Below, in pieces: positions 1 to 9,713 of a DNA stretch of 9,713 bases; positions within the stretch are counted from its first letter, which is position 1, and each line of letters begins with the position of its first letter. The notes under the pieces were generated by a model. That model was not told the origin of the DNA. It did not search any database and saw only the letters and a list, made by a program, of their open reading frames with translations. A program made the position numbers and the translations under genes. The DNA comes from a virus (Duplodnaviria; Heunggongvirae; Uroviricota; Caudoviricetes), in the IMG/VR virus record IMGVR_UViG_2737471860_000011, positions 1 to 9,713 of that record. One strand, 5' to 3'.

Positions 1-83
1 AGAAAAGTCAATGGGTTAGGTCATCGTGCAAATTTGCACTATGCCAGCCAACGCAATTTTGCGTTATCGGGAATATCAGCAAG

Positions 84-365
84 TTACCGCCGCAGTCGTT
101 CCGGCTTCTTCCACTGGTAAGTATTTTTCGCGCTCTCCCTCCGTTGTTGAGAACGGCGACGGTATGCCAGCAACTCAAGGACTCTGGTTCGTATGTTGCG
201 CATATCCACGCCGTTAAGCTCAATACCGTCACGGCGCATCACCTCAGCAACAACACGCGCGTAATTTTCGGCTGTCACGCTGTCCGGCTGTGTGGCCTGT
301 TCGTCATGCTGCTGGCTGATTCCGGTAACGCGGCGGATTAATCCCAGTAGTTCGGCTTCTGTCAT
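84..365 (-). CDS. Hypothetical protein (93 aa), function unknown
   Basis: ATG at 365-363 preceded by GGGGG Shine-Dalgarno 4 nt upstream; TAA stop at 86-84. Lies immediately outside the cosQ side of the left cos copy. No family recognised. Confidence 0.45.
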   Translation of the reverse strand: MTEAELLGLIRRVTGISQQHDEQATQPDSVTAENYARVVAEVMRRDGIELNGVDMRNIRTRVLELLAYRRRSQQRRESAKNTYQWKKPERLRR

Positions 366-397
366 TGTGCCCCCATCGCTCTGATAGTCTGGTGTCG

Positions 398-465
398 TCG
401 GGTCCTTCCTGGAATTATGGCCCGTTACGGGGCGGCGACCTCGCGGTTTTTCGCTATTTATGAGC
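398..465 (+). other. Lambda-type cos site, copy L (cosQ-like, cosN 430-441, start of cosB), plus orientation
   Basis: Contains GGGTCCTT...GTTACG followed by GGGCGGCGACCT and CGCGGTTTTTCGCTATTTATGA. This matches the phage lambda genome ends (right end ...GGTTACG, left end GGGCGGCGACCTCGCGGGTTTTCGCTATTTATGA) as recalled from memory. Confidence 0.75.
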
Positions 466-658
466 TTTTTTAGAGGGAGGTTGTTGTTTAATTGTTTGTC
501 ATATCCATTTGATAACTAAGTAAAAATAAAGAGCAATACAACAACCTGATAGTGTTTTTTTGATGCTAAAAATAAAAAAATGCTAATTGAATCAAATAGT
601 TTTAAAAAAATACGTGGTTGTTGTATTGCGTATTTGATGGCGTAACAGAAAGTGATTT

Positions 659-1099
659 TTAACTTTGCTGTTCTGTAACGACTGATTGTTCCATGCTGGC
701 ACGGCGAACGCTTACGGCATGACGCCACCCAGCCAGAAAGCCAGCCATTTTATTTCGTGCCTTGCTCACATCTTCCGGTGAATAGCCGTAAATCTGCAAA
801 CCTTCATCAAATCGATGTTCTGTTTCTTCACTGGAGTACTCGTCACGCTCAGATGAAAGCAGCCTGGCAAACATAATTTTTTCCAGCGCACTGGTTTCTA
901 CGTGATATCTGATGGCCTCAAGACGGCTTTTACCTGAAGACCAAAGCAATGTATGCCCGATGTGATAACCGCCAGACTTTCCGCGATCCGCATTAAGATA
1001 CGGCATCCCCTGTTTGGTCCATGCGCGAATAGTGGTTCTGTTAACCTTGAAATGTTCAGCTATTTCCTGCTGACTTACAAAACAAGCTTTATCAATCAT
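659..1099 (-). CDS. Terminase small subunit Nu1-like protein / candidate PICI Rpp-type packaging-redirection protein (146 aa)
   Basis: N-terminus SQQEIAEHFKVNRTTIRAWTKQGMPYL parallels lambda Nu1 KKQLADIFGASIRTIQNWQEQGMPV (winged HTH). ATG at 1099-1097 with AAGGT Shine-Dalgarno; start lies about 90 bp downstream of cosN copy R in the lambda cos-to-Nu1 arrangement. Confidence 0.8.
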   Translation of the reverse strand: MIDKACFVSQQEIAEHFKVNRTTIRAWTKQGMPYLNADRGKSGGYHIGHTLLWSSGKSRLEAIRYHVETSALEKIMFARLLSSERDEYSSEETEHRFDEGLQIYGYSPEDVSKARNKMAGFLAGWRHAVSVRRASMEQSVVTEQQS

Positions 1100-1165
1100 A
1101 ATGTTACCTTAACTGCATGGTTAAATATTAATCAAGTGGTGGTGGTGTCACCTTCACGGAAAAAC

Positions 1166-1233
1166 GTCATAAATAGCGAAAAACCGCGAGGTCGCCGCCC
1201 CGTAACGGGTCCATATGCCGGAAAGGACCCGCA
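1166..1233 (-). other. Lambda-type cos site, copy R (cosN 1189-1200 on minus strand), canonical position upstream of the Nu1-like gene
   Basis: Reverse complement reads GGGTCCTTTCCGG...CCCGTTACG, GGGCGGCGACCT, CGCGGTTTTTCGCTATTTATGA. About 90% identical to copy L in inverted orientation; cosN 12-mer identical to lambda. Confidence 0.8.
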
Positions 1234-1254
1234 AAAAAGCCGGATTTCTCCGGC
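1233..1254 (-). terminator. Rho-independent terminator ending the capsid-module transcript
   Basis: Minus strand reads GCCGGAGAAATCCGGC (6-bp stem, 4-nt loop) followed by TTTTTT. Located 7 nt after the stop of the 137-aa gene. Confidence 0.6.
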
Positions 1255-1260
1255 CTTGTC

Positions 1261-1674
1261 TCAGATGGTTTTCAGTATGCGATCAATGTCGCCGTCATCG
1301 CCCGGGTTTCTGCCATCGTATGCCATGCCAGCTGATACGGCTTGTGGGCTGTGCATGTCCATAAAGTTTTCAAAGGCTGCGGTAAGCTCTGGTGCAACCT
1401 TCTGGCGTTCCTGCTCTATGGTCATGTTCAGGATGTTTTTAGCCGTATCAACATCAATACAAGGCACGTTTGCCATTGCACGTAACAGCGGCTGATAGTC
1501 GTCAGATTCATGAAGCGACATAATCGCATCAGCGCGCGGCTTGTCCTGTTCTTCCAGTTTGTTAAGTTGATATATAGCTTCGTAGGTTGATAGACATCTG
1601 TCAGCCATTGCCCGCGCTTCAGCTTTAAATTTACTCGCCAGCGGTAGCGCCATGATACTTTCATTCGTTGCCAT
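1261..1674 (-). CDS. Hypothetical protein (137 aa) in capsid module; possible assembly or scaffold-like factor
   Basis: ATG at 1674-1672 with GGTGGA Shine-Dalgarno, 13 nt after the gpD-like stop. The track ORF 1261..1785 extends upstream across the gpD-like gene and is probably an over-extension. Acidic, helical-looking sequence; no family recognised. Confidence 0.55.
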   Translation of the reverse strand: MATNESIMALPLASKFKAEARAMADRCLSTYEAIYQLNKLEEQDKPRADAIMSLHESDDYQPLLRAMANVPCIDVDTAKNILNMTIEQERQKVAPELTAAFENFMDMHSPQAVSAGMAYDGRNPGDDGDIDRILKTI

Positions 1675-1687
1675 CGTTCCACCCTGC

Positions 1688-2023
1688 TTATCGCGCCAGC
1701 GGCTGAACAGATACACCAGAACCCGCAAAGGCGGCGCATTTTTTCGCGTCAGTGTCGGCGCTCTCAGGCCAGTTAACGGCGGCAATATTGAATATCCCCG
1801 TCTTGTAACACTGTGCTGACTTCTGCTTTGACGTGTCCACGGGGTACGAAGTCAGATAAACAGCCTTGCCAGATTCCTGACCATCCCACGGCTTAAACTC
1901 GCCATTGTCCGCCAGCATCAGCGGGGTAAATTCCTGAATAACGCCAGCATCAGCGGCAAAATGTACCAGTGTCGTGGATACCTGCTGACTGCCTGCAAAT
2001 AACTCAATGTATGGAGTGTCCAT
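1688..2023 (-). CDS. Head decoration protein, lambda gpD-like (111 aa)
   Basis: TPLMLADNGEFKPWDG and YKTGIFNIAAVNWPESADTDAKKCAAFAGSGVSV parallel lambda gpD TPLMLDTSSRKLVAWDG and [35 protein letters not shown]. ATG at 2023 with GGGGGA Shine-Dalgarno, 11 nt after capsid stop. Confidence 0.85.
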   Translation of the reverse strand: MDTPYIELFAGSQQVSTTLVHFAADAGVIQEFTPLMLADNGEFKPWDGQESGKAVYLTSYPVDTSKQKSAQCYKTGIFNIAAVNWPESADTDAKKCAAFAGSGVSVQPLAR

Positions 2024-2034
2024 AGAATCCCCCG

Positions 2035-3090
2035 TTAACCAATTTTGACGGTAACAAATTTGCGAATATCTGCCGGAACCGGCTGCGGTGCGCTGTGTGT
2101 CTGCACGTACTCAATCGCCGGATCGCCGTCCTCAATCCAGTTTTTCGGGTAGTACATGTTTTGCGTTGCGCCCGTTCTTACAGCTTCCTGATCCATAATC
2201 GCACCATAGGCCACCAGACCTTTGTTGTTGGTGTTGCCCAGGACCAGTAAATCAGGCTCAAGGAAATATTTTTCGGTGCCGTCGCTGTCAGTGTATTTGC
2301 CGGAATAGACGATAAGGGCAATATCGCCCAGATAGCCTTTAAAGCTCACCACTTCGCCCAGGTTTTTACAGGCCAGTTCTGCGGCGGATTCTGAACCACG
2401 GGAAAGATCGTACAGTTCGCGGAATTTTTTAAAGCTGCGTAACGTTCGCCATACCTCAGCGCCCATAATCATGACGTTGGCGGGGCAACCTGCTTGATCT
2501 GCGTATAGTTCGATATCATAGATTGGATCATGGGTTTCTTTGTCCTGCTCTGACCATTTACGGCCTTTGGCCTGCTCTATGATGTTTTTTTCCGGTATCT
2601 TCCAGTCGATTTCATAGCGTTCTATGCCTTCGCCCTCAATGATGTTTTTTCCGGTCGTTACCGCATTCACCGCCAGCCATTCCACGCGTGCCTTAATGGC
2701 GTTTATCTGGCGGCGCATGTTGCCAGTAATCAGGCGCATACGTCGGTAGGTAGGATCGTTAAGCTGTGCCGGATCTTCTCCAGCCATGCGCATGATGGTT
2801 TTTGTTGGATCGATTTCGTGCTTTGGCTTCATGTAGCCAGGTTTAATCGTGCTGGTTTCGTACCCTTTATCGCGCTGTACCTGGCTACCCACCATAGGCG
2901 AACAAAACGCAGACATGGTAACTTCTTCGGTATCCAGGTTATCCAGCATGATGTTTTGCGTGTTGAATGTCGCTACTTTCGGGAAAAACAGCGACGTAAA
3001 CAGTGGACTGAATTTAAATTCCGAAATATCCCCGCGATTCAGGTATCTGAAAAGCTGGTTAGTGTTAAGTGCCGTTGCTTTGCCTGTCAT
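2035..3090 (-). CDS. Major capsid protein, lambda gpE family (351 aa)
   Basis: KFSPLFTSLFFP, KPGYMKPKHEIDP, DPTYRRMRLITGNMRRQ and C-terminal YPKNWIEDGDPA match lambda gpE (KFDPLFLRLFFR, TPGYVKPKHEVNP, DPAYRRRRIIMQNMRDE, YPKNWVTTGDPA). Strong GGAGGTG Shine-Dalgarno 4 nt before ATG at 3090. Confidence 0.9.
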   Translation of the reverse strand: MTGKATALNTNQLFRYLNRGDISEFKFSPLFTSLFFPKVATFNTQNIMLDNLDTEEVTMSAFCSPMVGSQVQRDKGYETSTIKPGYMKPKHEIDPTKTIMRMAGEDPAQLNDPTYRRMRLITGNMRRQINAIKARVEWLAVNAVTTGKNIIEGEGIERYEIDWKIPEKNIIEQAKGRKWSEQDKETHDPIYDIELYADQAGCPANVMIMGAEVWRTLRSFKKFRELYDLSRGSESAAELACKNLGEVVSFKGYLGDIALIVYSGKYTDSDGTEKYFLEPDLLVLGNTNNKGLVAYGAIMDQEAVRTGATQNMYYPKNWIEDGDPAIEYVQTHSAPQPVPADIRKFVTVKIG

Positions 3091-3296
3091 TATTCACCTC
3101 CATGAGTCTGATTCATGCCCAGCGCCGCACGTAAATAGGCGCGTACCTGCCAGCCTGTTGACGGCTCAACCATCGCCAGCGGCTCAAGTCCTGCCGCAAT
3201 GCCTGCTTTTACGTTCTGCTGGTGGCGTTCCTTGAGCGCCTCCACGATGTCTGGGCTTATGTAAACTGTCACCCCGCCTTTTTTCTCTTCTGCCAT
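3090..3296 (-). CDS. Hypothetical small protein (68 aa) translationally coupled to the major capsid gene
   Basis: ATG at 3296 with AGAGGA Shine-Dalgarno about 10 nt upstream; its TAA stop overlaps the capsid ATG (TAATG). The track ORF begins at a GTG (3329) inside the promoter palindrome, which is less likely. Function unknown. Confidence 0.45.
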   Translation of the reverse strand: MAEEKKGGVTVYISPDIVEALKERHQQNVKAGIAAGLEPLAMVEPSTGWQVRAYLRAALGMNQTHGGE

Positions 3297-3324
3297 AGTC
3301 GGAAATTCCTCTTTGACGTTAAAA

Positions 3325-3380
3325 ATCACAACTGGATGTTCATCCAGTTGTGATTATAATCATGATTTCATTTTACGCAA
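3325..3380 (-). promoter_or_regulatory. Candidate sigma70 promoter of the capsid module overlapped by a 30-bp perfect palindrome operator
   Basis: Minus strand: -35 TTGCGT (3380-3375), 16-bp spacer, -10 TATAAT (3358-3353). Palindrome ATCACAACTGGATG-tt-CATCCAGTTGTGAT (3325-3354) abuts the -10 and covers the predicted start site; its core is CTG-N10-CAG. Confidence 0.5.
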
Positions 3381-3465
3381 TAATGTTTGGTTGTGTTGCA
3401 AATTGTGAAATGATTTGCGGCAACAGTAGTCACCATACTGTTAGATAAAAGCCTCATATGCAAAA

Positions 3466-3502
3466 GCCCGATAAGACCCTCTGACCTTATCGGGCTTTTT
3501 TT
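3466..3502 (+). terminator. Strong rho-independent terminator (bidirectional potential) between SSB and capsid modules
   Basis: GCCCGATAAG / CTTATCGGGC 10-bp stem with 10-nt loop followed by TTTTTTT on the plus strand; preceded by AAAA, giving a 4-U tail on the minus strand. Confidence 0.65.
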
Positions 3503-3509
3503 GGGGCAT

Positions 3510-3531
3510 AAAAAAGCCGAACTTCTCCGGC
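3510..3531 (-). terminator. Rho-independent terminator after the SSB gene
   Basis: Minus strand GCCGGAGAAGTTCGGC (imperfect stem) followed by TTTTTT. About 20 of 22 nt identical to the terminator at 1233-1254. Confidence 0.5.
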
Positions 3532-3547
3532 TTCTGTTACTCATTGC

Positions 3548-3970
3548 TTAAAACGGTATGTTATCCCCGTACGGATCATCGTTACCCGCCTGTTGTTTTG
3601 CCCTGTTCAGTGCGTCAGTAGCCTGGCCCTGTTGACCTTTTTTGCCGCCCAGTCGCGCCGTTCGCGCACTGATTACACTGTCTGCGATAACCTGCCAGCC
3701 CTGCCGCGTTTCTCCGTTCTGCCCAGTCCACTGGCTGATCTGCATGTTACCCGCCACGCTCAGGAGTTCACCCTTGCGGTGCCTTTCCAGTGCTTCGGCC
3801 TGTCTGCCAAATGCCAGGACGGATAACCACATCGTCGCCGTTCCGTCATCTGCCTGGCTGCACGGAAGGGGGACCGCCATACGCGCCAGCGTCATCGGTG
3901 TGCCCTTGCTGGTGGTCTTTAACTGCTGGTCAGCCACCAGCCGCCCGTAAGCCGCTATCTGTGCTGTCAT
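3548..3970 (-). CDS. ssb: Single-stranded DNA-binding protein (SSB) homolog (140 aa)
   Basis: OB-fold signature WLSVLAFGRQAEALERHRKGE...QWTGQNGETRQGWQV parallels E. coli SSB [21 protein letters not shown]...KWTDQSGQDRYTTEV. Gly/Gln-rich linker and C-terminal tail ending DNIPF (E. coli SSB ends DDDIPF). ATG at 3970. Confidence 0.8.
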   Translation of the reverse strand: MTAQIAAYGRLVADQQLKTTSKGTPMTLARMAVPLPCSQADDGTATMWLSVLAFGRQAEALERHRKGELLSVAGNMQISQWTGQNGETRQGWQVIADSVISARTARLGGKKGQQGQATDALNRAKQQAGNDDPYGDNIPF

Positions 3971-4033
3971 GCTGTCTGTTCTCCGGTTTTAACGTTGATA
4001 GTTACGCTTGTTTACACCCTTACGGTGAAATTC

Positions 4034-4158
4034 TGCGGGTTATAATCGCACTTTTGCGGGTTATAACTGCCATTTTGCGGGTTACGTGCGGGTTATTGAT
4101 TTCCTTTTTATTCATACAGTTAATTCACTTATACACAGGATAACCCGCATAACCCGCA
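4034..4158. repeat. Iteron array, putative replication origin
   Basis: Direct repeats of TGCGGGTTAT/C at 4034-4043, 4055-4064, 4076-4085 (21-bp phasing) and 4087-4096; AT-rich spacer 4097-4139; two inverted copies ATAACCCGCA at 4140-4149 and 4149-4158. Immediately 3' of the primase-helicase gene. Confidence 0.7.
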
Positions 4159-4181
4159 ACTTTTCACCTCACACAGGGTAG

Positions 4182-6305
4182 TTAATCTTCTGCCTCAGGC
4201 TGGAACATCATCACGTAAAAAACATGCTGCTTACCCCCAATTTTGCCGAGCGCCTTTTTCTTGTAACGGCGATCGTTACCCGCTTCCAGCATTCCGGCAG
4301 CACTCAACGCGCGGGCAAAGTGAGACGGATTAAATCCCTGTGCTATCTCACCCTCAAACACATGAGGAAACGTGTAAAAACGGAACTCATCATCTTCATT
4401 TCTGATACTCCCCTTTCTGTATCCGGCAAGGTCTTTAATCGGTAAATCACGCTCATCACTGTTTGGGTAAGGAAGGTATCGACTGAACCCGAACGACGAC
4501 AAAAACGCCTCAGCCTGTTCAACCATCTGTTTAAATTCCCTGTTACCCGTGCCGAACTCCTTCACCCAGGCATTAAAGTTATGCTGTATTGCGTCCCGGC
4601 ATTCCTGCGCGGCCCAGCCAGTTACATGACCGGAAAGCACAAGCGCAGCCTCCAGTATGGCGAAACGCTCCCCCACGCGGTGGACCTGCTCGCCGTAGCT
4701 ATCCGGTATCAGGTTGCGCCACCGTTCGCGGCATTCCCTTACCGTATCCTTTGCCTCCTGCTGGTGGTCTGCCAGCCATTTAACCCATTCACGACCCGCC
4801 GCCCCGTGATTTTCTGTCCAGGCATCTTTTAACGCGTCTGCGTGCGCCTTTCCGGTGCTGTATTCGTGAAATTGCGTGGCTTTTTCCATCGGAACGTTAA
4901 GCAGGCGGACAAGCTGCCCCGCTTTGACTTTTATCCCCTCCGTTTTGAGGAATGTCTCAACGTCCATTTCTCCGGTGCTGATTGCCACCGTGCGCCAGTG
5001 TTTTATCTCCCGGTTGCCGCCGTCCTTCGCCCCCTGTAATTTCCCGGAGCCGTTAAACAACGTATAGGCTGACGTGGACACCTCCCGCGCGTTTCCGGCC
5101 TGACCTATTTCATCCAGGGGTAACAGCCCGTCGTTGTGTGCCTCTGCCTCGTTGGCGATACCTAACGCCGTTCCGTACCAAGTAAGCCGTTGTGCGTCCG
5201 GCTCTCCCCATAAACTTGATGCGATGTTCTGCGTGGTGGTTTTCCCTGCCGATGACTGTTCGAAAAGATGTACCCCGAAGCCGTCAGCACCAACAAGGCC
5301 AATCAAAGGTGCTGCCAGTGACGTGGCAACACCCAGCATCATGGACGGATTGCCACCAGCCAGCCGCGCCACGCTGTCACGCCAGCCCTCCGCCGTACCC
5401 GCAACCGAATAGCCATTAACAGCGGCACTTTTTCCGGTAAACAGGATCGGTTTTTCAGAATCACCAATGATTGAACCGTCCGGCATGATGTACGCGCCAA
5501 AATGCCAGCCCGTTGTTGTGCTTAACTGCCATTCCTCATGGCTTCCGCTTAACTGCATCCAGTCAGCCAGGATAGCCCTGTATTTGCCGTTTGTTGTCAC
5601 ATTCAGCCCGTGATCTTTAAGCAACCGCCAGCCGTCACGGTCGCCAATGCCACCACACGGGATCGCCATTGTGATGACTTCATGGTTTGCTAATTTTTTC
5701 CAGCGCATCACGCGGTAATGCTCTTTACCGATCGTCCCCGTTCCCAGTAGTTCAAGCGGAGAACATAACCACGTCTCAGGCCGGATAATTTCGCCTGACT
5801 GCTTATCCACTTTGGGCGTTACCCAGAAAACACCATCGACGCGACTTTCAACGCGGGGCTTTAATTCATCATCCTGATAGCATGGCTCTTTTTTCTTTAC
5901 AGGCAGTTCAACTACCTTTTTCTTTTCCGCCAGCTCTCCCCGCTCACGCTCCAGATATTCGCGCCAGTTCTCCCGTTTCTGGCTGTGCATTCCTTCAGGG
6001 TAATAATCAGCATCCCTGACACCTGCCGCTGCCAGTTTCTGCCCGATGGTATTAACAAGCCCCGGACGCAATAACCCCGCCTGATAGAGACGCACGCGAT
6101 AGCGTCCGTCCGGTACGATTTGCAGGTTGTCCAGTTCGACAAGTTGTTGCTCTCCAAGCCAGACAGGTGGCACGTTATCGCCAGCCAGTCGCCCGTCCTG
6201 TTCCTGCCACTGTTTCGCATGTGCCCACGCATCACTACCCGCAAAAATGATGACTTCCGTCATTTTGTCACGCGGCTGGTGTTTTAAATTTGGCGCTTTT
6301 TTCAT
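4182..6305 (-). CDS. Replication initiator, fused primase-helicase (P4 alpha-like / DUF927-type, Pri-Rep), about 707 aa
   Basis: Large ORF with a P-loop-like motif (FEQSSAGKTT); position downstream of AlpA and directly upstream of the iteron array. Preferred start is the ATG at 6305 with GGAGAG Shine-Dalgarno, rather than the upstream GTG at 6320. ATG overlaps the stop of the preceding ORF (ATGA). Family assignment is from overall resemblance and context, not a domain search. Confidence 0.8.
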   Translation of the reverse strand: MKKAPNLKHQPRDKMTEVIIFAGSDAWAHAKQWQEQDGRLAGDNVPPVWLGEQQLVELDNLQIVPDGRYRVRLYQAGLLRPGLVNTIGQKLAAAGVRDADYYPEGMHSQKRENWREYLERERGELAEKKKVVELPVKKKEPCYQDDELKPRVESRVDGVFWVTPKVDKQSGEIIRPETWLCSPLELLGTGTIGKEHYRVMRWKKLANHEVITMAIPCGGIGDRDGWRLLKDHGLNVTTNGKYRAILADWMQLSGSHEEWQLSTTTGWHFGAYIMPDGSIIGDSEKPILFTGKSAAVNGYSVAGTAEGWRDSVARLAGGNPSMMLGVATSLAAPLIGLVGADGFGVHLFEQSSAGKTTTQNIASSLWGEPDAQRLTWYGTALGIANEAEAHNDGLLPLDEIGQAGNAREVSTSAYTLFNGSGKLQGAKDGGNREIKHWRTVAISTGEMDVETFLKTEGIKVKAGQLVRLLNVPMEKATQFHEYSTGKAHADALKDAWTENHGAAGREWVKWLADHQQEAKDTVRECRERWRNLIPDSYGEQVHRVGERFAILEAALVLSGHVTGWAAQECRDAIQHNFNAWVKEFGTGNREFKQMVEQAEAFLSSFGFSRYLPYPNSDERDLPIKDLAGYRKGSIRNEDDEFRFYTFPHVFEGEIAQGFNPSHFARALSAAGMLEAGNDRRYKKKALGKIGGKQHVFYVMMFQPEAED

Positions 6306-6601
6306 TTCTGCTCTCTCCACGCGGCAATCATGTTTTTCAGTTCCTGTAGTTTTTTATCCACATCCACACGTGACACATGGTTATTTCTGGAAGTCGGGAT
6401 TTCCCGCCGGAATCTACAAATAAAGATCTCCACGTTCAGCGAACTAAGAAATGAATAGCCATCACGGATAAAATACACACGGTCAAACATCAGTTCTTTT
6501 ACCGTTACTCTGTTACCGTTCTTATCCAGATAAATAGCGCCGGGGATAATTTTGGGGTGTGCATAACCGCTGGCAGTCAAGCCAGATAAATACGTTCTCA
6601 T
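6302..6601 (-). CDS. Hypothetical protein (99 aa), translationally coupled to primase-helicase
   Basis: ATG at 6601 with GGGGA Shine-Dalgarno; TGA stop overlaps the primase ATG. About 38% GC in a sampled 100-bp stretch, lower than the primase gene. No family recognised. Confidence 0.55.
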   Translation of the reverse strand: MRTYLSGLTASGYAHPKIIPGAIYLDKNGNRVTVKELMFDRVYFIRDGYSFLSSLNVEIFICRFRREIPTSRNNHVSRVDVDKKLQELKNMIAAWREQK

Positions 6602-6607
6602 GATTAC

Positions 6608-6928
6608 TTATCCCCGATTTGAATCAGTATTCGCTTTCTTTATGGCATTTAACGCATCTGTGGCATTTTCAATGGTGCACCGTAACGAAATATCAAACTG
6701 CCCAAGCATTGTCAGTAACAAACCGATATTCCCCATGTCAATGCGCATAGCCTTTTCGTCATATTCCTTATTTTCTGACGCATACCACATCAGGCTACCA
6801 ATTGACGCAACAGCCATTGATATATTGTCAGTAGCCGCATCCGCAGCAGAATAAACCTTTTTAGCAATATCATGCTCACAGTTAAAATGCGGATTAATCA
6901 GGTACTGGTAATTTGACATATCAGGCAT
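6608..6928 (-). CDS. Hypothetical protein (106 aa)
   Basis: ATG at 6928 with GGGGG Shine-Dalgarno; 6-nt gap to the next gene. Low-GC like its neighbour. No family recognised. Confidence 0.55.
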   Translation of the reverse strand: MPDMSNYQYLINPHFNCEHDIAKKVYSAADAATDNISMAVASIGSLMWYASENKEYDEKAMRIDMGNIGLLLTMLGQFDISLRCTIENATDALNAIKKANTDSNRG

Positions 6929-7124
6929 GGCACACCCCCTGACGAATACGGGCAGCGAATACCATCACGCAGCCAGCCGGGGATTGCTGGCGTGCTTCCT
7001 GTTCGCTGCTGGCCTCAATGGTAATCACGCGCGGTTGTGCCGTACTCAGGGCGATAAAACGCCAGATGTATTTATTCAGGTTGTGCGAGTCCAGCCCTTG
7101 CGGGTGTGTGGTATGATTTCTCAT
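6921..7124 (-). CDS. Hypothetical small protein (67 aa), first gene of the replication operon
   Basis: ATG at 7124 with GAGGT Shine-Dalgarno 5 nt upstream; 8-nt overlap with the next gene start. The track ORF 6921..7862 (313 aa) is rejected as one CDS; only the 3' 68 codons have a ribosome-binding site and sit downstream of the promoter. Confidence 0.4.
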   Translation of the reverse strand: MRNHTTHPQGLDSHNLNKYIWRFIALSTAQPRVITIEASSEQEARQQSPAGCVMVFAARIRQGVCHA

Positions 7125-7222
7125 AGCTACCTCGATACTCTTGCTATCGTTGGTGGTTAGACGCCCTGCATGTGTTGCGAGCACTGCGGGGCGTTGCTTA
7201 ATTTGAGTGACAAAACTCAAAC

Positions 7223-7302
7223 TGTGCGCACAGATTAAAATCATGTGTGCGCACATGTCAATACTTAACATCTCATTTTTTTTGCTGTATTGTGTGCGCC
7301 CA
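7223..7302. promoter_or_regulatory. Divergent promoter region with three operator palindromes (TGTGCGCACA)
   Basis: Perfect 10-bp palindrome at 7223-7232 and 7246-7255; one-mismatch copy TGTGCGCCCA at 7293-7302. Minus-strand promoter: -35 TTGACA (7261-7256), 16-bp spacer containing O2, -10 TTTAAT (7239-7234), with O1 at about +1. Plus-strand promoter: -35 TTAACA (7265-7270), 17 bp, -10 TATTGT (7288-7293), with O3 over -10/+1. Confidence 0.6.
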
Positions 7303-7329
7303 TAAAGTCCATTTAAGTGAGGTGCATCA

Positions 7330-7527
7330 ATGTCTAGCGGTAACACAAACAACAAATCAGCAAAGAAAAATATTCGATTCCCACATGAGCTTATAGATGG
7401 GATTGATGCCAGCGTTGAACAAGAAAAATTAACTAATCCTAGTGCTAATTTTTCCGCATGGGTCTTAGATGCCTGTGGACGCAAATTAAAATATGAACAG
7501 CGCCGGAAGGCCAAAGAATCAGAATAA
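7330..7527 (+). CDS. Arc/Mnt-like ribbon-helix-helix transcriptional regulator (65 aa), candidate repressor of the replication operon
   Basis: NIRFPHELIDGIDASVEQE...NFSAWVLDACGRKL parallels P22 Arc NLRWPREVLDLVRKVAEENGRSVNSEIYQRVMESF (beta-strand then two helices). GAGGTG Shine-Dalgarno 6 nt before ATG; divergent from the operon across the operator palindromes. Confidence 0.65.
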   Translation: MSSGNTNNKSAKKNIRFPHELIDGIDASVEQEKLTNPSANFSAWVLDACGRKLKYEQRRKAKESE

Positions 7528-7584
7528 TCACTATCAGCGCCGTGGTGTGAGTAACTACGGCGCATTGCTATGCAGGACAACACA

Positions 7585-7758
7585 ATGACCGATAAAGAAT
7601 TGACCAAAACATTATCACCGGCACGGAAAAGACGGCGCAGAAAGATAGAGCATGAATCAGAAAGATTCGCACCTTGTTCGTTTGCTCTTGAGAAATTCCT
7701 TAAAGAGCACAGGAAAAAGCTCTCGTTGCAAACCTTGGGACGAACCAAATCTGACTGA
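7585..7758 (+). CDS. Hypothetical small arginine-rich protein (57 aa from ATG 7585; track ORF starts at 7570)
   Basis: AGGA about 8 nt before ATG 7585; contains ARKRRRRK. Sits between the RHH gene and a plus-strand terminator. Weak support overall. Confidence 0.3.
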   Translation: MTDKELTKTLSPARKRRRRKIEHESERFAPCSFALEKFLKEHRKKLSLQTLGRTKSD

Positions 7759-7825
7759 TCACATTGCCCACCAGCCGCAAATGTGGCATTGTTGGTGATG
7801 CGTTCAAGTTTAGTGTGTATCCATT

Positions 7826-7851
7826 GGCGACCGCCCCCGGTCGCCTTTGTT
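7826..7851 (+). terminator. Rho-independent terminator of the plus-strand regulatory transcript
   Basis: GGCGACC gccccc GGTCGCC hairpin followed by TTTGTTATATAT on the plus strand; no U-tract on the minus strand. Confidence 0.6.
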
Positions 7852-7872
7852 ATATATGTCATATGCTCCCCT

Positions 7873-8082
7873 TTACGCTGCCTTACCTGAATTAATGCGA
7901 TCCCGGCTTTTAACCCATTCCATAACCTCGGACAGCAGCCAACCTACAGAACGCCCACCAAGATTACGGCGAGACGGAAAGCTCCCTTTTTTCTCCAGTT
8001 CGTAGCGTGTAGTGCGACACACTCCAGTTAACTTACGACATTCATCCTCACGGATTACGCGATCTTCATTTATTTCACGCAT
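7873..8082 (-). CDS. alpA: AlpA / P4 Vis-family transcriptional regulator (69 aa; track ORF extends to a GTG at 8169)
   Basis: ECRKLTGVCRTTRYELEKKGSFPSRRNLGGRSVGWLLSEVMEWV matches the AlpA pattern (HTH, then KxGxFP...LGGRSV.W...E...W). ATG at 8082 with AGGT Shine-Dalgarno; adjacent to and co-directional with the integrase. Confidence 0.8.
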   Translation of the reverse strand: MREINEDRVIREDECRKLTGVCRTTRYELEKKGSFPSRRNLGGRSVGWLLSEVMEWVKSRDRINSGKAA

Positions 8083-8474
8083 ACAAAAACCTACATAAAA
8101 ATTACGTATATAAACTTTTCTCTTAGCTGTAGATATATGAGATCGGATATTACTTAGATTCTTTTTCACCTCTTAAATTAAAAACACAACCATGCTAAAG
8201 GCTTTGTTCGCTAAGGTTCGTAGAAGCTCGTTAGTGTTTAAAATCGTGTCACGAGTTTTTAAGCGACGCAACAAAAAAATGTCTTCATTTTGCATGACAC
8301 TTGAATTATCTCATTAAAAACAAATAGATAAACCATCAAGTGTTGGAACAATCAAGAAACAGAGAATAAAAACCCAGAAGACGACATTCCAATTAAGATA
8401 TTTGCAGATATTTTCCGATATTCTACGATTTATTCACGGCTGTAATCTCTTAAAGAAAAAACAGCCGTAATTTG

Positions 8475-9713
8475 TCAATAATTTTGGGTGTAAATTCGCG
8501 GGGTCATAACAACGATTTTTTCATCATTGTTCTGGAGAAGCTCGAGACGGTCTACCCATAGATTAAGAGCGTCACGCTTTGCATCGAGATAACGGGAGTG
8601 GTTATAGACGCGTTGCATTCCTGGCATCTGGTGGGCAGTAAGCTGTTCGACAATATGCGGATCCACGCCTAAATCGTTCAGCATGGTTGTAAATGTGTGC
8701 CGGATGTCGTGCAACGACCAGGGGGCTTGATTAATGCGTCTGTGTGCCGTTCTTCCGTACTCTGCTACGGATGATTGCCCTTTCAGTTCTCCAAGCAATA
8801 AGCCCGTGTGCCTGTTCTGCTCCACCAGCTTCATGACGAACGGCAAGATCGCTTCCGGTATTGGCCTGAATATTGCTACCTTCGTTTTGCTGTGTTCTTT
8901 CGGCACAGTCCAGAGCATTTCTTTAAAATCCCATTCCCGAACCTCGGAGCGTCTTAGCTCAGTGGTACGGCATCCGAAGACAATCAGAAGGCGAATTAAA
9001 GCGCTGTAGTACGGCGGGAAAATTTTTTCATCCAGTGCGCGGAGTAGCTCGCCAAGCTCCTTGTTTGTTAGCACTCGCTCGCTTATTTCTGCTTTTTTTC
9101 CCACATCACCTACGACCATATCATCAAGAACGTTACTGACGGCGTAGCGACGTTTACGGCAGTACTTAAGCGCCTGTTTGCATACCTGCAACAAAAAGCC
9201 GGCTGATACCGGATTACGCTTAGCAAGCTGGTCAAAACAGGCCAGCCAGTGGCGTAGCTCGCATTTATCCAGCGGCATAGCACCAATCTGGCTGATTATG
9301 TGCTTATTGATACGGCTTTTCAGTGATTCGTGGTCAGTGCGCTTTTCCTTCGCATACGACTCAAGCCAGTAAGTGAGCGCGTCCTTAACCGTCACGGGGG
9401 CTAACGCTTCCTGCACTGTGTGATTAAGCTCATGGCGTGGATTTTTCCCCTCCGCCAGCCAGGCGCGACACTGTGCCGCTTTTTCCCTGGCTGCTTTCAG
9501 GCTCAGATCGGGATAGTTGCCCAGTCTCAGGCGTTCCGGTGATACCTGCCTGCCAGTTCCGGCCCTGTAAGTGAAATACCAGGTTAACAGGCCGCTAGTG
9601 GAATGTCTTACGCTAAGATTGCCACCGTCATTAAAAAAGGCGTTTTTTGTGGTTGGTGATCCGCTTAATTTTCGTAAAAGAGTGTCGCTAAGTCTATGAA
9701 TTGCGCTGCTCAT
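8475..9713 (-). CDS. int: Site-specific tyrosine recombinase, P4-type integrase (412 aa; start codon is the last 3 nt of the window, possibly 5'-incomplete)
   Basis: N-terminal LSDT...DGGNLSV...YFTYR...LGNYPDLSLKAAR parallels the CP4-57 IntA N-domain. C-terminal catalytic signature HDIRHTF (H-x-x-R) and VYNHSRY (tyrosine nucleophile). Confidence 0.9.
   Translation of the reverse strand: MSSAIHRLSDTLLRKLSGSPTTKNAFFNDGGNLSVRHSTSGLLTWYFTYRAGTGRQVSPERLRLGNYPDLSLKAAREKAAQCRAWLAEGKNPRHELNHTVQEALAPVTVKDALTYWLESYAKEKRTDHESLKSRINKHIISQIGAMPLDKCELRHWLACFDQLAKRNPVSAGFLLQVCKQALKYCRKRRYAVSNVLDDMVVGDVGKKAEISERVLTNKELGELLRALDEKIFPPYYSALIRLLIVFGCRTTELRRSEVREWDFKEMLWTVPKEHSKTKVAIFRPIPEAILPFVMKLVEQNRHTGLLLGELKGQSSVAEYGRTAHRRINQAPWSLHDIRHTFTTMLNDLGVDPHIVEQLTAHQMPGMQRVYNHSRYLDAKRDALNLWVDRLELLQNNDEKIVVMTPRIYTQNY

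Follow-up and report, generated by a model that had tools for sequence, protein, structure and literature searches.

Lambda-type coat and decoration genes with a Nu3-like partner in a Gram-negative phage satellite of the EcCICFT073 type

The DNA analyzed here, referred to as the window, is a stretch of 9,713 nucleotides (nt) covering positions 1 to 9,713 of the IMG/VR virus record IMGVR_UViG_2737471860_000011 (Caudoviricetes). Our subject is a unit of four tightly packed minus-strand genes within it, in the order orf68-E-D-137-aa open reading frame (ORF), with terminator hairpins on both sides. An earlier inspection of the letters and ORFs, made without database searches (the sequence-only reading), had proposed that the unit encodes a lambda gpE-like coat protein and a gpD-like decoration protein belonging to a phage satellite, and had offered two roles for them: a capsid-forming satellite or a redirection of capsid size. 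It is important to point out that the feature is already known, as a module of a known satellite family that was described in 2018 in EcCICFT073-type satellites of Escherichia coli. Our additions are modest: a Nu3-like assignment for the 137-aa protein, the description of a satellite-specific E/D clade under purifying selection, and a caveat concerning the markers used in published constructs.

Coat, decoration, and partner genes

The E-like gene (3090-2035, minus strand) encodes a lambda gpE-type major capsid protein of 351 amino acids (aa) that matches Pfam Phage_cap_E (E = 2.7e-52) and is 44% identical to lambda gpE. Residues 1-350 match PDB entry 3BQW (351 aa, E = 6e-231), deposited as "putative capsid protein of prophage," as well as the lambda capsid 7VI9 (E = 2e-83). 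Because the match to 3BQW is this strong, the satellite coat lineage already has a solved structure. The D-like gene (2023-1688, minus strand) encodes a gpD/SHP-type head decoration protein of 111 aa (Pfam HDPD, E = 1e-17) with 37% identity to gpD; among solved structures it comes closest to the head decoration protein 1TD0 (E = 6e-13). The sequence-only reading was therefore right that these are E-like and D-like genes and that E precedes D, the reverse of lambda. An Edwardsiella helper prophage discussed below likewise has D before E.

Gene content, order, and identity mark the unit as the orthologue of EcCICFT073 c1498-c1501: orf68 corresponds to c1498, E to c1499, D to c1500, and the 137-aa ORF to c1501. 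The two share all four genes, whose order and lengths (68, 351, 111, and 137 aa) do not differ, and are 93.9% identical in nucleotide sequence. By its 351-aa length and near-identity, 3BQW would fit the product of EcCICFT073 c1499, which we regard as its candidate identity.

The 68-aa ORF (3296-3090, minus strand) ends in a TAA stop that overlaps the ATG of E (TAATG), an arrangement that suggests translational coupling to E and that the sequence-only reading had noticed. Its product belongs to PHROG phrog_3255, a family without assigned function, and matched no Pfam or NCBIfam family. An AlphaFold2 (AF2) model reached a mean predicted local distance difference test (pLDDT) score of 64, and a Foldseek search of it against the PDB returned nothing at E <= 0.001. 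A ribbon-helix-helix assignment was considered and not adopted, the Pfam hint being a mere faint one (E = 0.22). The family is restricted to Enterobacterales. Islands of four genera were sampled (Escherichia, Salmonella, Pluralibacter, and Edwardsiella), and in each of them the gene immediately precedes E.

Downstream of D lies the acidic 137-aa ORF (1674-1261, minus strand; pI 4.6), whose acidity had also been noted earlier. Its product matches PHROG phrog_1999 (E = 2e-62) and the C-terminal end of phrog_53, the gpC-type protease family (E = 2.6e-8). Lambda Nu3 itself matches phrog_1999 across Nu3 residues 117-200 (E = 2.7e-26) and is similarly acidic (pI 4.5). When 1.84 billion representative proteins were searched exhaustively by HMMER with the 137-aa protein, only 8 clusters were returned, two of them distant. 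This search also supplied a bridging protein (P0067, 195 aa) that has three copies of the Nu3 motif and that matches both the 137-aa protein (E = 2e-10, BLASTP) and Nu3 (E = 2e-16). The 137-aa protein aligns collinearly with the C-terminal ~85 residues of Nu3/gpC, up to the extreme C terminus. When the shallow 137-aa alignment was compared with single-sequence Nu3 by hhalign, the match was weak (E = 0.019, probability 2.4%); the homology call is founded on P0067 and on the PHROG profiles, which are deeper. Taken together, these matches make the 137-aa protein look homologous to the lambda Nu3/gpC scaffold, over the C-terminal half of the latter. An AF2 model of it was all-helical with a pLDDT of 43, too low for a fold search.

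The absence of a scaffold gene next to E and D was thus the one part of the earlier description of the neighborhood that was wrong, because the 137-aa ORF is homologous to the Nu3/gpC C-terminal half; the absence of an adjacent portal or protease gene held, and none was found anywhere in the window. With the Nu3-like protein counted, all parts of a lambda-type head-shell set are present, namely coat, decoration, and a Nu3/gpC C-terminal scaffold domain, and the C/Nu3-D-E order of a full head operon is absent. The NCBI name "phage head-tail connector protein" (gp6-like) for the 137-aa protein was rejected: there was no Pfam match at E <= 10 and no relevant NCBIfam match at E <= 1, the lone weak one (E = 0.095) being to an unrelated enzyme family. 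A tblastn search of 50,697 phage records with the 137-aa protein gave no match, and profile searches of genome contigs, with the 137-aa profile and then E, confirmed nothing. The gene c1501 is unannotated in the table of the EcCICFT073 authors themselves (PMC6092414), and Nu3 and PICI (phage-inducible chromosomal island) never occurred together in a relevant context in the literature that we searched. In the islands of Salmonella and Pluralibacter, D is followed by genes for small proteins that belong to phrog_657 and are not counted here as Nu3-like.

The spacing of the unit is tight throughout, with 11 nt between E and D and 13 nt between D and the 137-aa ORF, and a ribosome-binding site in each gap. 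An intrinsic terminator closes the unit directly after the last stop codon (1256-1233, minus strand; GGCCGGAGAAATCCGGCC-like stem and T6, folding free energy [dG] -14.1 kcal/mol). Upstream, on the same strand, lie two terminator-like hairpins, one at 3531-3510 (GCCGGAGAAGTTCGGC and T6, dG -12.4 kcal/mol) and the other at 3499-3462 (17 bp, dG -23.1, z -6.0). This hairpin region (3462-3531) is conserved in CFT073 and other islands, and its terminator-like elements would insulate the unit from the upstream genes for single-stranded DNA-binding protein (SSB) and replication. A promoter-like site, TTGCGT-16 nt-TATAAT, can be read at 3380-3353 on the minus strand (TATAAT at 3358-3353), and the promoter-like region (3353-3410) also contains conserved upstream TTGCA-type elements. 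The -10 hexamer, an invariant TATAAT, and the upstream blocks are conserved in the E. coli, Salmonella, and Pluralibacter islands. These elements agree with the dedicated promoter-to-terminator unit that had been proposed, the promoter being putative. A consensus promoter and terminator scanner listed none of them, with a yield no higher than in shuffled sequence, and its own match in the promoter region was TTCACA-18-CATTAT at 3409-3380; the promoter and terminator calls given here come from reading the sequence itself, from folding, and from conservation.

Between the -10 hexamer and the ribosome-binding site, an inverted-repeat search found a perfect palindrome with 15-nt arms (14-bp hairpin) and a T-run (3321-3355, minus strand; dG -19.6 kcal/mol, z -6.5). 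Over 17 alleles, 93.7% of its cells remain paired, two pairs have changed on both sides, and G-U pairs are tolerated; the leader hairpin of Pluralibacter is shifted downstream. The palindrome could be an operator, a 5' stabilizer, or an attenuator. A blastn search of the upstream regulatory region against phages found no match, so that the region gives no sign of having been copied from a helper late promoter.

Conservation and relatives of the unit

The module is present at full length and 91-96% identity in 594 of 5,426 complete E. coli genomes (~11%). Satellite E proteins are 54-96% identical among themselves and 41-47% identical to phage E, with the phage side of the comparison including the helper prophage that adjoins the satellite in the same Edwardsiella locus. 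Two phage E proteins that were compared are 58% identical to each other, and D shows the same pattern. Among the 50,697 phage records, none comes closer to satellite E than 47% identity. On this pattern of identities, satellite E and D form a clade of their own, distinct from phage E and D and under strong purifying selection.

We counted intact genes over 80 IMG/VR loci and pooled the ratio of nonsynonymous to synonymous polymorphism (pN/pS), in the case of E and D over 45-70 distinct alleles. E is intact in every one of these loci, orf68 is full length in 79, and D is intact in 78, with a contig end cutting each of the other two copies. Full-length copies of the 137-aa gene occur in 69 of the 80, and in ~6 that have intact E and D the gene is genuinely truncated or lost; it is therefore more dispensable than they are. 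Pooled pN/pS values are low for E (0.15) and D (0.10) and higher for orf68 (0.32) and the 137-aa gene (0.30), and the pairwise ratio of nonsynonymous to synonymous substitution rates (dN/dS) for E is ~0.1 even at dS near 1. The islands with a truncated or mostly deleted 137-aa gene are L020, L035, L048, L025, L045, and L080, and shorter versions of the gene occur in L006 and P0066 (115 and 134 aa).

These data bear directly on the idea that the unit has no function and is left over from an ancestral head module, lambdoid or capsid forming, being kept by hitchhiking. Such a remnant would fit the dispensability of the genes in laboratory assays (see below), the losses of the 137-aa gene, and the island of Pluralibacter gergoviae, in which E is frameshifted and split near codon 180. 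The intact E and D genes, the low pN/pS and dN/dS values, and an orf68-E-D order kept across Escherichia, Salmonella, Pluralibacter, and Edwardsiella contradict it, and we consider a remnant highly improbable. On this evidence the module genes in E. coli are not decaying remnants, and the split Pluralibacter gene is an example of decay in one lineage. That split is seen in two independent assemblies (L008, 8200-9275, and L009, 7785-8838), both with intact D and orf68.

Some relatives are integrated in the genes of their helpers. In an Edwardsiella tarda locus (L013, 1-14213) the satellite sits inside the helper portal gene, and its orf68-E-D is followed directly by the truncated portal gene and then by the protease, D, and E genes of the helper; the satellite E-D and phage D-E orders thus stand side by side. 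In a Salmonella locus (L010, 1-10219) the satellite lies inside the helper terminase gene, with its integrase abutting the truncated terminase A gene. A sister island in E. coli E47 (L002, 7232-9220), at the same clpS-cspD site, has E and D proteins that are 55% and 53% identical to those of the window. It lacks orf68 and the Nu3-like gene, and an AlpA-like helix-turn-helix protein and a TerS-type gene follow E and D instead; the late region is mosaic.

The island that carries the unit

The integrase, AlpA, replication, capsid, and Rpp (redirecting phage packaging) genes all lie on the minus strand. The tyrosine integrase (8475-9713; Phage_integrase, E = 1.6e-17) occupies one end and is followed by an AlpA-family regulator (7873-8169; Phage_AlpA, E = 4.8e-16) and a primase (DUF927, E = 7.9e-48), and further island genes encode a DUF4222 protein, SSB, and a 93-aa ORF. 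Just downstream of the DUF927 primase gene are iterons of the GCGGGTTAT type, in direct and inverted orientation (4024-4168), which are probably the replication origin of the satellite.

Beyond the capsid unit lies an Rpp homologue (659-1099, minus strand; PDB 6HLK RppC, E = 5.7e-31). A lambda-like cosQ-cosN copy that points toward rpp lies at 1160-1231 on the minus strand, and a second, inverted copy lies at 399-470 on the plus strand. Both have GGGCGGCGACCT, the first aligning to the lambda cos junction and the second to lambda cos, and together they form a 72-nt inverted repeat (88% complementary) that flanks the rpp gene and an AT-rich spacer. Both follow lambda through cosN and diverge ~25 nt into cosB, and they correspond to the published cos1 and cos2 of EcCICFT073. 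The combination of an Rpp homologue with lambda-like cos sites points to hijacking of the terminase of a helper and hence to dependence on it.

With an integrase at one end and then AlpA, a primase with a downstream origin, and cosQ/cosN with a non-helper cosB together with Rpp, the window is an essentially complete ~10-kb Gram-negative PICI, a phage satellite of the EcCICFT073 type. Among the window ORFs tested, Pfam and PHROG identified no portal, protease, large terminase (TerL), HNH, or connector genes; the sole "protease" match is the Nu3-like C-terminal region of the 137-aa protein. The sequence-only reading had suggested looking for portal, protease, and large terminase genes to the left of the window. 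E. coli relatives of the island sit between clpS and cspD or between phoQ and roxA, with at most ~0.5-1.1 kb between the position of the window's left end and chromosomal clpS or phoQ. Because the relatives show the island ending at the window edge, portal, protease, and TerL genes are truly absent rather than out of view.

It follows that the first of the two proposed roles does not hold: with the whole island in view there is no portal, protease, TerL, HNH, or connector gene, and the island uses Rpp and cos. Capsid-forming PICIs (EcCIEDL933 type) share with it the int-alpA-rep backbone and a satellite-encoded capsid protein, but they encode HNH, TerS, TerL, portal, protease, and connectors, of which this island has none. 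What survives of the earlier proposal is a satellite with its own lambda-type coat and decoration genes that needs a portal and protease, and also a terminase and tails, from a helper.

EcCICFT073 resembles the window in its upstream regulatory region and terminator and in being an island with Rpp and two cos sites, whereas the window is another allele with other neighbors. Its replicase is the DUF927 primase, it has no upstream PerC gene, its Rpp is closer to RppC, and its closest-integrase relatives are at clpS-cspD rather than at phoQ-roxA. Two short ORFs (7330-7758) run opposite to the rest. One of them (7330-7527, plus strand), a short divergent DUF3950 (YlcI/YnfO-like) ORF, separates alpA from the replication genes, a placement shared with relatives. 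A minus-strand ORF of 313 aa (6921-7862) overlaps it and is probably spurious.

Published tests and the possible role of the unit

In the 2018 study of Fillol-Salom et al., c1499 is called a capsid gene and c1500 a decoration gene, and the analogy with Ccm is put to an explicit test (PMC6092414). Helper-dependent induction, packaging, and high-frequency transfer have been shown experimentally only for EcCICFT073 (PMC6092414). Transfer by the natural helper was not lowered by deletion of c1499 or c1500 (3.8e3 and 8.7e3, respectively, vs 8e3 transductants/ml), interference with lambda persisted after either deletion, the DNA packaged in particles was phage sized, and a construct named c1499::cat transferred at 1e5 to 1e6 (PMC6092414). 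A c1498-c1501::melA derivative was still transduced by phi80. When the genes after ori were cloned singly, only c1503 (RppA) inhibited lambda, and deletion of c1503 restored lambda; as no other post-ori gene inhibits lambda alone, RppA fully explains the interference.

There is a complication in how these constructs are described. The baseline EcCICFT073 markers are named c1499::cat and c1501::tetA, that is, inside the capsid unit (PMC6092414), and strain JP16617 is c1499::cat in the 2018 paper (PMC6092414) and c1504-c1507::cat in a 2023 paper (PMC10460865). Because the markers are named for module genes and JP16617 is described in two ways, the intact module was possibly never assayed for capsid size or interference. 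The published capsid-size and interference assays may thus have lacked an intact module.

This bears on redirection of capsid size or interference with assembly, the second role that had been proposed. The E protein would act like Ccm and the Nu3-like fragment like SaPI1 CpmB, competing with the helper scaffold for its site on the coat, and assembly would be biased to small shells or helper assembly poisoned. CpmB is reportedly a satellite protein that resembles the C terminus of the helper scaffold, as Dearborn and colleagues are said to have described in 2017. The cassette does pair a coat homologue with a homologue of a scaffold C terminus, a likeness to Ccm and CpmB in which the coat is 44% identical to gpE; there is, however, no sequence relationship of Ccm or CpmB to the window's proteins. 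The island is about one fifth of the length of lambda. A related Pasteurella PICI, PmCI172, has a capsid homologue and makes small capsids according to the literature, and SaPIbov5 Ccm, like CpmB a size-redirection protein of staphylococcal satellites, is a satellite-encoded coat homologue (review). In the tests on c1499 and c1500, on the other hand, the proposal was not borne out: the EcCICFT073 orthologue gave no small capsids (its particles held only phage-sized DNA) and no module-dependent interference, transfer and interference were unrelieved by the deletions, and RppA accounts for all of the interference. Size redirection or assembly interference would now have to be confined to an intact module or to particular natural helpers, and in that form we regard it as unlikely.

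A different possibility is that the genes have a nonstructural role, in which their products would titrate or sense chaperones or head proteins of the helper (portal, protease, GroEL/ES) or would serve as a decoy or trigger in defense or counterdefense. Dispensability for transfer and interference in every published assay would fit such a role, and the strong conservation still argues for some function. Defense-system models and Rfam matched nothing relevant in the window, however, and the coat protein has kept a full-length fold, with its structure solved. Also, the decoration and scaffold-like partners coevolve with the coat gene, as expected of proteins that assemble together. We consider a nonstructural role distinctly unlikely.

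The best reading, which we hold tentatively and at less than even confidence, is that the unit is a conditional cassette for a satellite-supplied shell that is assembled on the portal of the helper. Gene identities, synteny, selection, and the absence of other head genes are the observations behind it, and from these we infer a timing of expression, a coassembly, and a benefit. The cassette would supply a satellite-lineage lambda-type coat (E), a cement protein (D), and a Nu3-like scaffold fragment, with the coupled 68-aa protein ahead of them. Upon helper induction it would be transcribed from its own promoter, insulated by terminators from the replication genes. The Nu3-like protein would guide polymerization of satellite E on the helper's portal, the helper's protease would process the product, and satellite D would stabilize it, giving shells made wholly or partly of satellite protein. 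Rpp would redirect the helper terminase to the satellite cos site so that it fills these shells, and the tails would come from the helper. Any benefit would be conditional, in that private or backup shell subunits would be of use when helper coat is in short supply, is incompatible, or has been interrupted (the situation in helper-embedded relatives). The cassette would be nonessential with helpers of the kind of lambda, phi80, and CFT073 prophage 4.

Several observations favor this conditional shell cassette, including the tight, coupled, terminator-bounded unit, the E, D, and Nu3-like identities, the separate clade, the strong conservation, and the relatives that have integrated into head genes of a helper, a setting in which a spare coat gene might be useful. 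Helper-embedded PICIs (11capE; PMC10111431) are of the same PICI family and have their own E-family capsid gene. The relatives inside the helper terminase (Salmonella) and portal (Edwardsiella) genes resemble them in location, whereas the close relatives of the window island are chromosomal, at clpS-cspD. Weighing against the cassette are the published results given above on transfer, interference, packaged DNA, singly cloned genes, and the melA and cat constructs, together with the weak hhalign match, the islands that have lost the 137-aa gene, and the Pluralibacter frameshift.

It is also conceivable, although unlikely in our judgment, that the intact coat, decoration, and Nu3-like module builds satellite-specific shells on the helper's portal, possibly smaller than T=7, and that the earlier negative results were due to markers in c1499 and c1501. 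If true, this would be a third satellite-capsid strategy, between stealing everything and encoding everything, with the satellite contributing shell and scaffold only and taking portal, protease, terminase, and tail from the helper. The E and D proteins and the C-terminal alignment of the 137-aa protein to Nu3/gpC tie the unit to the lambda head genes, but its order is orf68-E-D-Nu3-like rather than C/Nu3-D-E, its E is at most 47% identical to that of any sequenced phage, and the satellite is without portal, protease domain, W, FI, and FII.

Beyond the Nu3-like assignment and the construct caveat, the window is another allele of a described element. The E and D genes nevertheless present a puzzle, being carried by ~11% of complete E. 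coli genomes and under strong purifying selection, yet dispensable in every published assay. A Nu3-like scaffold in the cassette and constructs that possibly disrupt the cassette would make the question of the module's role cleanly testable. In a later survey, the capsid gene was the commonest phage late gene in Gram-negative PICIs, occurring in 21 of 29 reference elements.

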